From assembly GCA_900315545.1 (NCBI GenBank), contig OMZM01000011.1, forward strand, positions 11,760-75,759: a stretch of 64,000 nucleotides of DNA. Direction: 5' to 3'. Position 1 is the first letter of the stretch; each line of letters opens with the position of its first letter. Positions 4,098 through 26,300 of this stretch are shown here, piece after piece. The position numbers and the translations under genes are program-made. This DNA comes from an uncultured Prevotella sp. (GTDB lineage: Bacteria; Bacteroidota; Bacteroidia; Bacteroidales; Bacteroidaceae). The notes under the pieces are model-generated. The model was given only the letters and a program-made list of their open reading frames with translations, did not search any database and was not told where the DNA came from.

Positions 4098-4516
4098 AAA
4101 AAAAATACTTATAGATAATTAAATCTTAAATTGAATTAAAATATAAAACATTATATTATTTATACATAATAGTTTATTATCTTTGCAAATAAATTTAGAC
4201 TCTGTAAAGTCCAAAATAAATGTAAAACTCATTGTGAAAAAAGGCAAGGACAACCTTCAGAGCCACAATGAATAAAAATGTTAGAGAAATAGTATAATAT
4301 TATTAATTTAGACATCCTTGACTAAACTGAAAAAGCAGAATTAGCACTTCAGAAAAATATCAGTTCAGCTAAGACAATGGATACCTACGCTTTAATAATG
4401 GGCGTGGATAAAAATGTTGTTGACTGATATGGGCAGTGCTAAGCCTTGCTTATCAACCACTTTCCACGCCCTATTTCATTAACAAAAAGGGGCTTTTGGC
4501 TTACTATATTACAAAT

Positions 4517-5536
4517 ATGAGACCAAACAAGGAATATGTAAAGATTAATGACAATTTAGAAAAGGTTAAAAATTTTGTCAACGAAATTATTATTACACCG
4601 AAACATGCTCTTACAAAATGGGCTAAAATTACGAATCAGACTCCTGCTGCAAAAATAGGATACATCGGACAACACCTTATTTCAATTATTACAGGAGTTC
4701 CTGGAACTGGAACAGGAGCAAGAGGGGACGATTTGGCAGATGGGTCTGAAATAAAATCATGCAACAAAATAGATCAGGTGGATAAATGTAATGATTGTGG
4801 AAGCAGAGTTCTCAGAATAGAATCAAAATGTTCTGTCTGTGGAAGTAAAAAAATAGAAAGGAAAAATGATAGCAAATGGTTGTTTGGGGTTAGAGATGAA
4901 CATGAATTAAAACAATATCTTAACATGGACAGGATAGTACTTTTATTAATGGACTATCCAAAATTTGAAGAAGGGGATTATAAAGATATTAGAATTTCTG
5001 TATTTGAAATATACCCAAAAGAAGACAGGATGAGCGTTTTTGGTAATTTATTATCAAATCATTATTACAACATTTACACACCCAAACTTAAAGACAATAA
5101 AAAAACAAATCCGATGAATCTTCATCCATGGTCATTTCAATTTTACAAGTGCAATCCTATAAAAATTTTTGAGTGCATCATAAAAAACATTGATACTTCT
5201 CCTACTATAATTATAGAAGAGGATACATATATAAAACCACTTCAAGTACGAGGCAATAATTTGAAACCATTACCAATGCCAAGTACTTTACTAAAAAAAA
5301 ATGAATGGGAAGAAATGATTTCAAAAGTAAATTATAAAACAGATATTTTACCTCTAATCTGTCAAGATTATCTTAACCATAAGAACATTACTACATTAAC
5401 AAAACTTCAATTTAAAAACCTATCTATAAAAGAGAAGCAAAAGGCTTTACCTTTTTTAGACATGAAACTTAGAGATAACATTTCTCTCAGACCTATTGTT
5501 TCTACACAGCAGAAAAAGCATTATCAAAGAGGTTAG
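4517..5536 (+). CDS. Type II restriction endonuclease, MamI-like
   Basis: GQHLISIITGVPGTGTGARGDDLADGSEIKSC segment (PD-(D/E)xK-like DLADGSEIK) resembles the MamI family as I recall it; CxxC-x11-CxxC motif; AT-rich; next to a DNA MTase. Start taken at MRPNK (4517), not the TTG/GTG-type start at 4436. Confidence 0.7.
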   Translation: MRPNKEYVKINDNLEKVKNFVNEIIITPKHALTKWAKITNQTPAAKIGYIGQHLISIITGVPGTGTGARGDDLADGSEIKSCNKIDQVDKCNDCGSRVLRIESKCSVCGSKKIERKNDSKWLFGVRDEHELKQYLNMDRIVLLLMDYPKFEEGDYKDIRISVFEIYPKEDRMSVFGNLLSNHYYNIYTPKLKDNKKTNPMNLHPWSFQFYKCNPIKIFECIIKNIDTSPTIIIEEDTYIKPLQVRGNNLKPLPMPSTLLKKNEWEEMISKVNYKTDILPLICQDYLNHKNITTLTKLQFKNLSIKEKQKALPFLDMKLRDNISLRPIVSTQQKKHYQRG

Positions 5537-6419
5537 GACTATTTGCTTCTTTAATCCTATTAAGTCCTATTTTAAAATAAGTTTCATCCAACTCAATACC
5601 TATATAATGTCTATTAAGTTGGATGCAACTTATTTGGGTCGAGGCAACACCTGAAAAAGGATCCAAAACAACATCACCTTCGTTACTACTAGTTTCGACG
5701 AGTCTTCTTATCAGCTTTAGTGGTTTCTGAGTCGGATGAAAATGTTTTTCTTTATAAAAATCTATATCTGTCCAAACATCTGTAAATCCCATTTGTGGAT
5801 TAAACGTTTGAGCTACTTTCTTATAAGGTAGTTCAAAATCTAATACAACAGATAACTTTTCCCATAAATCTTTAGTTGGGAACTGTTCACATACATTATT
5901 CCCTGTATAAATACTCCACATTCCTCCTCCATTTGATTTAACACCCAAAGATTCATTTATCTGTTTGGCAGATAATCCCTTTTCCTGTTGTTTTTCTTTT
6001 AAAAAAGGTTTTACAAATTTCTTATTGTCTTTTACAATTAGAAGTATACTTTCTGTAACATTTGGAAATATTTTATATTTCTTTGTAGCACGACCACTGA
6101 CGGCTCTCATTCCTTTGTCTATAATAATTTGCTGCCTTAATTCCAGTCCCATTTCTTCTAAGTATGGAACTAAAAGAGCTAAAGTTCTGAAATAACCAAA
6201 ACAATAGAAGCTACCTCCTATTCTTAAGATTCTTGCAGCTTCACGAATCCACTTTAATGACCACTCAACATAATCTTTTTCTGTTCTCCACTTATAATCC
6301 CACTTTTCTCCTATTACTTTCCAATATGGAGGGTCTGCAATTATAAGATCTATCGAATTATTATCGATACTTTTCATTGCTAAAATACAATCATCGTTTA
6401 TATTAATATCGTATTTCAT
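5502..6419 (-). CDS. Beta-class N6-adenine/N4-cytosine DNA methyltransferase
   Basis: Motif IV DPPY near the N-terminus, HPTQKP, and motif I DPFSG near the C-terminus. Convergent with, and overlapping by 35 bp, the endonuclease. Confidence 0.92.
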   Translation of the reverse strand: MKYDININDDCILAMKSIDNNSIDLIIADPPYWKVIGEKWDYKWRTEKDYVEWSLKWIREAARILRIGGSFYCFGYFRTLALLVPYLEEMGLELRQQIIIDKGMRAVSGRATKKYKIFPNVTESILLIVKDNKKFVKPFLKEKQQEKGLSAKQINESLGVKSNGGGMWSIYTGNNVCEQFPTKDLWEKLSVVLDFELPYKKVAQTFNPQMGFTDVWTDIDFYKEKHFHPTQKPLKLIRRLVETSSNEGDVVLDPFSGVASTQISCIQLNRHYIGIELDETYFKIGLNRIKEANSPNLFDNAFSAV

Positions 6420-7443: not shown

Positions 7444-7693
7444 CAAGCATCAGGCTACGCGAACGCAGCATTTTCGCAAAACTGTCCGTTAACCTGTAAT
7501 GGCAATTTCACAAATTACCAAGAAAGAATACTACCCAACATACTGAAAACACACAAATTTTTCTTCTTTGCAACTGTTTGGTTGTAAATTTCAGAACTCT
7601 AAATGAAAATTTTTCAAACATTATGACTTAATTTGCAGAAAACTTGTATCTTTGCACTGTGTTTCGTAAGAGACGCTACATTATTTGCTCAAT

Positions 7694-7849
7694 TTCTCTA
7701 CCGAATTAGGACCTCGAATGAGACAAACGAGTATTACCAATATACATTGGAGCTACGCCCATAAAAGCGTAGTCTATACCATAGTTATATTGGAGGCTGT
7801 CCTAAGCCCGGTAGAGAATATGGCAGGGCTGCGCTTTCCTTTTCTATAA
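7694..7849 (+). ncRNA. Candidate structured 5' leader RNA (element L1)
   Basis: TTCTCTACCG-AA-TTAGGAC (7694-7712) pairs with GTCCTAA-GCC-CGGTAGAGAA (7799-7818); lies just after a TGTATCTTTGCA promoter box; same architecture as L2 at 25696-25903. Confidence 0.6.
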
Positions 7850-7909
7850 AGGATTGTGCAGATGCTAAAGACGAATAAGGCAATATTGCACAACTAAAAA
7901 ATAACAGGT

Positions 7910-25695: not shown

Positions 25696-25903
25696 TTAAA
25701 CGGAAAGACGTGGGTGCTCTACTTTTCGCTTATCCCACGTGAGGGCTCTCGCATTGCCTTGACCAGGATAAGCAACTCGAGATAGCCCACGCCGAGACAT
25801 ATTGAAACTATCTGCTACACCAGCAGACAGGGTACAATACACCCATAGTGGACGTTTCGGTTGCGCTTCTTCTGGTCTTTGAATTTGCGAGATTCTCACG
25901 TAG
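25696..25903 (-). ncRNA. Candidate structured 5' leader RNA (element L2)
   Basis: On the minus strand CTACGTGAG-AA-TCTCGCA pairs with TGCGAGA-GCC-CTCACGTGG; several inner hairpins; downstream of a TGTATCTTTGCA promoter box at ~25979-25991. Confidence 0.6.
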
Positions 25904-26300
25904 AAGAAAACGTTTCGTAACGTCCTTTTTGCCTCTAAAATATTGACCCGCCGTCCCTTTCGGGCTATTTCGAGTCGTATGCAAAGATACAACAATTCTT
26001 GCAAATGATGATATTTTTTGCCTTGTTTTTTTAATTTTCCCTCTGATTTCCTACTTTTTGGCTGGACTGTCGCTTGCGAATTACTTATTCTACTATTATA
26101 TATAATGTATGGTTTTGACAAGCGTCTTTCGCTCGGGGATGAAAAGAAAAAACATTTTTTCCTTTTGCATTCCGACTGCTTATTGCATAAAATCCTCACG
26201 CTCTACAGAATAAAAATTATTTATTTTGTCATCACTTAATCGGATTTTTCGTAACTTTGCACACACTAACGGGAAAAAAAAAGAAAAGAAATATAAAACT

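Follow-up and report, generated by a model that had tools for sequence, protein, structure and literature searches.

The window, by which we mean the whole 64,000-nucleotide stretch of Prevotella DNA analysed here, contains three copies of a structured leader, which we call L1, L2 and L3 (Table 1). L1 and L2 each consist of an outer stem (P1), an internal loop of AA opposite GCC, and an inner stem (P2) that closes a long interior; a segment of this interior can pair with bases immediately beyond the 3′ arm, with a T-rich run next. These stems, the loop, the interior sizes and the tail pairing had been noted in a preliminary description of this DNA, and when read directly from the sequence they are all as claimed. 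The promoter boxes said to precede both leaders are also in place, and the genes behind them are AT-rich, as described (GC 0.39, 0.33 and 0.42, against 0.46 for the genome). Two long-range helices, PK0 and PK2, are present beyond those listed at that time. Of the elements in the L2 5′ domain, T1 (RGNCGT..ACGNYY) and a GACATATA box recur across the family. Both leaders fold far better than shuffled sequence, with z-scores of −6.2 for L1 and −4.8 for L2.

Table 1. Leaders L1, L2 and L3 and the genes behind them. Paired strands are separated by a slash; the helices of L3 were read from the sequence.
Feature	Position	Strand	Description
L3	4174–4476	+	promoter 4174–87; leader 4328–4476
L3 P1, AA, P2, GCC, P3	P1 4333–38/4446–51; P2 4341–47/4436–42; P3 4357–64/4423–30	+
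L3 PK1	4400–07/4464–71	+	GGGCGTGG / CCACGCCC
L3 PK2	4419–23/4453–57	+
Gene behind L3	within 4174–5536	+	ATG at 4517; ~339-aa ORF; probable restriction enzyme
Promoter box before L1	7644–7656	+	TTGTATCTTTGCA; Bacteroides −7 type TAnnTTTG
L1 5′ hairpin H0	7659–7676	+	GTGTTTC-GTAA-GAGACGC
L1 PK0	7686–90/7729–33	+	TGCTC / GAGTA; shuts off P1/P2 5′ strands
L1 rod	7694–7818	+
L1 P1	7694–7703/7809–7818	+	TTCTCTACCG / CGGTAGAGAA; 10 bp
L1 internal loop	7704–5/7806–8	+	AA opposite GCC, between P1 and P2
L1 P2	7706–12/7799–7805	+	TTAGGAC / GTCCTAA; 7 bp; interior 86 nt
L1 GNRA-like hairpin	7713–22	+	within rod
L1 P3	7737–44/7786–93	+	within rod
L1 P5	7752–58/7767–73	+	within rod
L1 PK1	7766–74/7827–35	+	AGCGTAGTC / GGCTGCGCT, then TTTCCTTTTC
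L1 PK2	7779–83/7819–23	+	CCATA / TATGG
L1 terminator hairpin (conformer B, predicted)	7766–7844	+	PK1 at base, PK2 on top, then U-tract 7835–44
Gene behind L1	7910–8485	+	191-aa protein; signal peptide; no Pfam match; GC 0.39
Promoter box before L2	25992–25980	−	TTGTATCTTTGCA
L2 5′ domain	25976–25909	−	hairpin D0 (25976–25945); small hairpin T1 GGACGTT-ACGA-AACGTT (25925–25909)
L2 PK0	25908–02/25873–67	−	TTCTTCT / AGAAGAA; span 25867–25908; encloses P1–P3 5′ strands
L2 rod	25903–25735	−
L2 P1	25903–25895/25743–25735	−	CTACGTGAG / CTCACGTGG; 9 bp, one G-U
L2 P2	25892–86/25753–47	−	TCTCGCA / TGCGAGA; AA / GCC loop; interior 132 nt
L2 P3	25877–72/25766–61	−	within rod
L2 P4		−	GCAAC / GTTGC; within rod
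L2 P5	25853–48 (5′ strand)	−	GTCCAC / GTGGGC; within rod
L2 PK1	25793–86/25714–07	−	GGCGTGGG / CCCACGTC, then TTTCC
L2 PK2	25773–66/25735–28	−	GCTTATCC / GGATAAGC; 2-nt overlap with P4
L2 terminator hairpin (conformer B, predicted)	25793–25698	−	PK1 + PK2, then U-rich 25706–25698
First gene behind L2	25647–25300	−	115-aa ORF; no Pfam; GC 0.33
Second gene behind L2	25068–24181	−	295-aa lipoprotein with FGE-sulfatase domain

The leaders belong to one RNA family

A scan of the 2.29-Mb genome for the shared architecture (8 bp + AA + 7 bp ... 7 bp + GCC + 8 bp) returned six sites, against 0.6 per shuffled genome. Four of the scan matches (L2, C18, C19 and C28) have clear blocks in common, namely AAtCTCGCAAATTC, GCAAC, GGCGTGGGCTA, ACGTTGC and GGGCAATGCGAGAGCC, and a covariance model, R1, was built from them. 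With filters off, L1 is the second-best match to R1 in the window, aligned end to end and in register (15.1 bits, E 0.041). L1 and L2 had been described as unrelated in sequence; this did not hold, as the two are homologous, having in common a GCGTrGnCTAT core, the AA/RCC loop, the U-tract and the order of helices. On this comparison L1 and L2 are diverged paralogues of one RNA family, and L1 is a diverged and shorter type. One L1-type homologue (L169) bears the GCGTGGG core of the L2 type.

L3 was found by R1 with filters off, again in register (11.5 bits, E 0.28). The ORF behind it faces a DNA methyltransferase gene (5502–6419, minus strand), with a slight overlap at their converging ends; together they probably form a restriction-modification pair, with the nuclease gene placed under the leader. 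In all, at least ten family copies are found in the 2.3-Mb genome (eight R1 matches plus L1 and L3), three of them in the window. One copy, at C28:13884–14163 (+) of genome G000, carries a 117-nt apical insert and has no co-oriented ORF in the 1.4 kb that remain to the contig end; an XRE-type gene lies beside it on the opposite strand. Two further hits, C23:26421 from the structural scan and C16:17566 from R1, the latter in an ACP gene, were rejected as chance matches.

Helices of the leader covary on the sense strand

To examine the pairings across the family we used two alignments: an L1-type alignment (A5) of 19 sequences made with MAFFT only, and an L2-type alignment (A4) of 74 members fitted to P1, P2 and P5, in which PK1, PK2 and P4 were left out of the underlying model and about 45 of the 74 rows were collected by a pattern that fixes GCGTGGG and GCAATGCGARRGCC. 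P1 is paired at 99.5% in the L1 type, with compensatory changes at nine of ten pairs, and at 97.5% in the L2 type, with all four Watson-Crick types at seven of eight positions; the corresponding values are 99.2% (six of seven pairs compensatory) and 99.6% for P2, and 86.5% (four pairs) and 93% for P5, while P4 reaches 76% in the L2 type. The tail helices behave in the same way. PK1 is paired at 95.4% and 91% in the L1 and L2 types, and PK2 at 95.7% and 87–97%, with compensatory changes in both helices in the L1 type. The 5′ hairpin H0 is paired at 84.6% in the 19 L1-type homologues, with compensatory changes in five of seven pairs. L1 PK0 is 97.9% paired in its alignment, yet the sequence there is nearly invariant. 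L2-type PK0 strands form a mean of 7.5 bp with their own partner versus 6.3 bp with the partners of other sequences, and covarying pairs include CGTCTGTC/GACAGATG, TATCTTC/GAAGATA and TGGTTTCT/GGAAACCA. P3 scores just 44% paired in the L1-type alignment, an artefact of misalignment between its hypervariable strands, since the helix does form within individual sequences.

None of 500 shuffles of either alignment gave as good a covariation score, and overall pairing is 86.6–92.2% of cells, versus 35–52% after partners are slid by one to three columns. The unpaired loop is close to invariant: AA is conserved in 72–73 and RCC in 73–74 of the 74 L2-type members, and both in 19 of 19 L1-type sequences. 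J2/3 (AAUUCAAA / GGGCAA) is conserved in the L2 type only, and the P2 sequence is conserved in that type. Thus covariation and conservation of the AA/GCC loop among homologues, the two properties on which the earlier proposal of an RNA class had been staked beforehand, are both strong. On the sense strand, G-U pairs far outnumber A-C combinations (56:0 in P1, 112:0 in P5, 84:3 in PK1 and 81:16 in PK2), and it is therefore the sense-strand RNA that folds.

The rod and the tail hairpin are probably alternative folds

Three long-range helices lie outside the rod. In PK1 the P5 3′ strand (GGCGTGGG in L2; GCGTAGTC in L1) pairs with the tail; PK2 connects the P4–P3 joint to the bases right after P1, and PK0 brings together U-rich bases right before P1 and an A-rich joint within the rod. 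The GCGTGGG strand is common to P5 and PK1, and both helices covary; because they use one strand, they are mutually exclusive. At locus L172, all three strands have changed together (GCTGCAC / GTGCAGAC / GTCTGCAC). PK1 and PK2 are nested one within the other and make a two-tier hairpin that abuts a conserved U-tract, and the 3′ stretch folded alone adopts this hairpin (−28.0 kcal/mol in L1, −37.9 kcal/mol in L2). The nine bases after PK1 contain a mean of 6.55 T in 74 members, against a background T frequency of 0.28, and six to eight of the nine are T in 19 of 19 L1-type homologues; L2 (CUUUCC) and L3 have weak U-tracts. The two-tier hairpin, with too large a loop, escaped a standard terminator scan, which flagged H0 of L1 as terminator-like. 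The loop, unusually large at ~32–35 nt, consists of the 3′ strands of the rod.

The tail pairings had been described as a pseudoknot. The pairings themselves are present and covary; a static fold is not supported, as they form a nested, putative terminator hairpin in competition with the rod. Linkers of zero length separate PK0a from P1a, P3a from PK0b, PK2a from P3b, and P1b from PK2b, and each of PK0 and PK2 loops out one side of the rod; on steric grounds, their coexistence with a straight rod would therefore be excluded. The pairings are thus probably better read as an alternative fold than as a static pseudoknot. With only the terminator enforced in folding, L1 PK0 forms by itself. Predicted energies of the rod and of the alternative state (state B) are −60.2 and −49.6 kcal/mol for L1, −99.9 and −95.8 kcal/mol for L2, and on average −104.6 and −90.7 kcal/mol for 51 members, in which the rod is ~14 kcal/mol more stable. 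The rod is therefore favoured at equilibrium, and a choice between the states would have to be kinetic or factor-dependent.

A targeted test gave weak support for a candidate extra helix, T1a:P5a, in state B (2.64 vs 2.41 pairs, p 0.009). Two recurrent boxes flank the leaders. In L2-type loci the GACATATA box lies ~45–55 nt upstream of P1, between D0 and T1 (window ~25940–25926), and its sequence complements that of the P5 5′ strand in some subfamilies (GCAGACAT/ATGTCTGC). In the L1 type a GTTAGTGC box (GATTGTGCA in L1, ~7866–7874; alignment columns ~225–233) is present in ~12 of 19 copies, ~15–25 nt past the U-tract and before the start codon.

The leaders precede unrelated surface and accessory genes

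A box similar to TTGTATCTTTGCA precedes every family member inspected, and the first co-oriented ORF starts ~95–145 nt past the GCC loop. For L1 and L2 no promoter box lies between leader and gene (in L1, no TAnnTTTG from the U-tract to the ATG). The downstream products are unrelated, and most have a signal peptide or a lipoprotein signal; elsewhere they include BspA LRR, zinc-ribbon, WG-repeat, LytTR and XRE proteins, glycosyltransferases, Tat-signal Cys peptides, a probable restriction enzyme and, judged by sequence alone, an MBOAT-like membrane protein. Behind 19 L1-type leaders the genes are almost all mutually unrelated, which argues that the leader is a portable module. Nor do the downstream genes, taken as a set, point to one metabolite or ion, as the genes under a riboswitch might.

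The family is widespread in Bacteroidales and uncatalogued

R1 copies occur in 17 of 31 related genomes, with up to 10 per genome, and R1 matches are absent from four of 18 other genomes of the genus that were sampled. Of 151 genomes of the genus, 20 have L1-type homologues by BLAST, at 68–79% identity. When one genome per species was scanned with a pattern, at least 120 loci came up across Bacteroidales genera; among the pattern matches listed are Prevotella, Paraprevotella, Bacteroides, Parabacteroides, Muribaculaceae, Paludibacteraceae, Alistipes and others. Cultured bacteria among these carriers include Paraprevotella clara YIT 11840, Paraprevotella xylaniphila YIT 11841, Xylanibacter rarus, Prevotella ihumii and Bacteroides bouchesdurhonensis. 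The family is present in most genomes of the genus and across Bacteroidales. In a 300-genome sample of the phylum, short forms were found in two other orders of Bacteroidia, before a secreted protein and a lipoprotein; these are genuine members, and the family is sporadic there. The pattern was also seen in assemblies labelled Clostridium, Oribacterium, Lachnospiraceae, Oscillospiraceae or Firmicutes (L040, L065, L072, L102, L107 and L109); mis-binning of Bacteroidales contigs is the most likely source of such loci, rather than genuine copies in Firmicutes. A blastn search with L2 gave no match among plasmids and phages. The L2-type core pattern is found in twelve viral or proviral contigs of IMG/VR (L177–L188), and the leader thus also precedes genes on some (pro)phage DNA.

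A search of the whole window against Rfam 15 at gathering thresholds returned a single family, a cobalamin riboswitch (RF00174, 35506–35692, plus strand, 99.5 bits) that lies elsewhere. L1 and L2 gave no meaningful match to Rfam 15 at E <= 10, and among 13 diverse members the only match was to an unrelated TPP riboswitch (L155:1868–1964, plus strand) that lies ~200–300 nt from an L1-type leader in a related genome. The Bacteroidales-1, Bacteroides-1 and Bacteroid-trp motifs described in 2010 for Bacteroidales are Rfam entries and are distinct from this family, and full-text literature searches found no description of the leader RNA. The family is therefore uncatalogued, being absent from Rfam and from the literature searched, and the novelty proposed earlier survives the Rfam comparison. 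The broader proposal of an uncatalogued class of cis-acting structured RNA, with an invariant AA/RCC loop and covarying stems, before diverse AT-rich accessory genes in Bacteroidales, is borne out as well.

A proposed two-state attenuator and its alternatives

Our preferred reading, to which we assign a probability of about 0.6, is that each family member is a 150–300-nt 5′ leader that acts in cis as a two-state transcription attenuator. Several features seen in attenuators are found together here: a promoter upstream, a co-oriented gene that has no promoter of its own, a hairpin with a U-tract, and an alternative helix that shares a strand with it. The helices of both states covary, P5 excludes PK1, and the order of promoter, leader and gene is kept; what the model adds is how these parts may work. 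Each leader would be transcribed from its own Bacteroides-type promoter. In state A, the long rod (P1, AA/RCC loop, P2, P3, P4 and P5) would leave the 3′ tail free, and RNA polymerase would continue into the gene. In state B there would be no rod: PK0 would loop out the rod's 5′ strands (stem-loop A), while the P5 3′ strand and the adjoining joint would pair with the tail through PK1 and PK2, giving a hairpin that, with the U-tract, would form an intrinsic terminator (stem-loop B). We infer that termination would take place at this U-tract. The choice between the states would be made kinetically during transcription, and a factor, whether protein, small molecule or RNA, may set it by recognising the invariant AA/RCC–P2 region; since this region is structured in the rod state only, it is the obvious candidate for the binding site.

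The same helices could instead belong to a single compact fold, in which the rod and the three long-range helices coexist, PK1 is native, and the molecule is multiply pseudoknotted and bent at AA/RCC and J2/3, serving as an orphan riboswitch aptamer or a protein-binding platform. Covariation of every helix, the invariance of the unpaired AA and RCC and the conserved P2 sequence of the L2 type fit such a structure, and multi-copy leaders before surface genes resemble second-messenger riboswitch regulons. We nevertheless consider it unlikely: P5 and PK1 lie on one strand and cannot coexist, four junctions have zero-length linkers, PK2 overlaps P4 in L2, and the downstream genes give no hint of a ligand.

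We give less credence still to the idea that these are stand-alone genes for trans-acting sRNAs, with their own promoter and terminator, and that downstream expression is incidental read-through. Each copy does have its own promoter and a terminator-like 3′ end, and paralogues are numerous in each genome, as they are for the FopS sRNAs. FopS and GibS of Bacteroides are multicopy sRNAs with a single-stranded seed and a simple terminator that act in trans on susC mRNAs and are in Rfam (PMC11697453); the leaders resemble them as a multi-copy Bacteroidales RNA family with sigma-ABfr promoters, but differ in architecture and have no similarity to FopS. Moreover, a co-oriented ORF without its own promoter box always follows the element directly, and no seed sequence in common is evident because P1 and P3 are hypervariable.

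A third possibility is that a specialised, UpxY-like NusG paralogue is recruited at the conserved GCGTGGGCT / GCGTAGTC core, which would serve as an ops-like pause site behind a pause hairpin, and that the leader loads a processive antiterminator. In Bacteroides capsule operons, opsX is a ~40-bp DNA and pause element before upxY; in surface-polysaccharide operon leaders it reads YGCGNAGCR and follows a pause hairpin (PMC11685472). The parallel is that our elements also lie in leaders of Bacteroidales surface-structure genes and that a GCGNAG-like core follows a hairpin, AGCGTAGTC standing directly after one in L1. We regard this as very improbable. The leader is a covarying RNA of 150–300 nt, C/U and A/G changes in the strands that pair with the core preserve RNA pairing, no upxY gene lies behind the leaders, and the genome, 92% complete, has a single NusG-family match (PF02357) against at least ten leaders, which makes a specialised NusG paralogue unlikely.

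The ssDNA alternative raised in the preliminary description, an attC-like recombination signal that moves gene cassettes, would suit an element that is defined by structure, has stems of variable sequence and adjoins AT-rich accessory genes, but is effectively refuted: the G-U excess on the sense strand, where A-C is nearly absent, and the fixed order of promoter, element and co-oriented gene, unlike that of a cassette 3′ end, indicate an RNA and no DNA palindrome or bottom-strand recombination site, and the contig has no integrase and neither end of the element a GTTRRRY / RYYYAAC box.

Two other ideas were rejected. T1 resembles the ARACGTWCGT of an Mpi-type invertible promoter; on visual reading there is no inverted copy upstream, and the hairpin keeps G-U pairs. 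A leader peptide was dismissed because just one ATG recurs (GCAATGCGA), within the 3′ strand of P2, with variable P1 sequence after it, and L1-type copies do not have it.

Relation to known attenuators

Read as attenuators, the leaders follow a familiar logic. In classical attenuators and riboswitch platforms, such as the 1:2 / 2:3 / 3:4 helices of trp-type leaders, PyrR-dependent pyr leaders and ZTP-type platforms that share a pseudoknot strand, regulation relies on alternative pairing. The Bacteroidales leaders likewise have a chain of overlapping alternative helices that ends in a hairpin and U-tract before the gene presumed to be regulated; they differ in having no conserved leader peptide, no known RNA-binding regulator and no clue to a ligand from the genes, and in the size of the terminator loop.

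The closest single counterpart is cATT of the Bacillus plasmid pLS20, a zipper-type transcriptional attenuator (Gonzalez-Alvarez et al., NAR 2026, PMC13401043). Each is a long leader in which a weak hairpin comes first, then a long, imperfect stem-loop in the centre and finally a terminator; each has two nested conformations that exclude one another, and in each the site proposed to bind a factor is conserved. In cATT, however, a separate downstream terminator hairpin is absorbed as the long stem extends, whereas the 5′ arm of the predicted Bacteroidales terminator comes from the rod, at its tip and 3′ side. Because this arm is borrowed from the rod, the whole rod would have to be absent for the terminator to form. 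The Bacteroidales family also belongs to another phylum, has no conjugation or ConAn context and is present in many copies per genome. We looked for a zipper-type interaction between the tail and the upstream hairpin. A match of the tail to the hairpin's 5′ arm is confined to copies in which the arm reads GGCGT; where it reads GACGT the tail is still ACGCC, so the two do not covary.

Implications for surface gene control in Bacteroidales

If the model is correct, the design is an unusual one for an attenuator, in that the terminator would be built from the far side of the antiterminator rod, and the leader might provide a compact control part for the engineering of Bacteroides. More tentatively, as a possibility that we hold well below the attenuator itself, the leaders may be the cis element of an unknown global switch, either an orphan riboswitch or the regulon of an RNA-binding factor, that co-regulates at least ten surface or accessory operons per genome throughout the gut Bacteroidales; here AA/RCC–P2 would be the sensor, and the hypervariable P1 and P3 would give each copy an 'address' that prevents cross-pairing between the halves of paralogues. 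Control of variable surface and secreted proteins after transcription start is little known in Bacteroidales, an order dominant in the human and animal gut. As a portable, multicopy leader stands before at least ten accessory operons in this genome and before many unrelated ones across the order, one signal may gate much of the accessory surface proteome.
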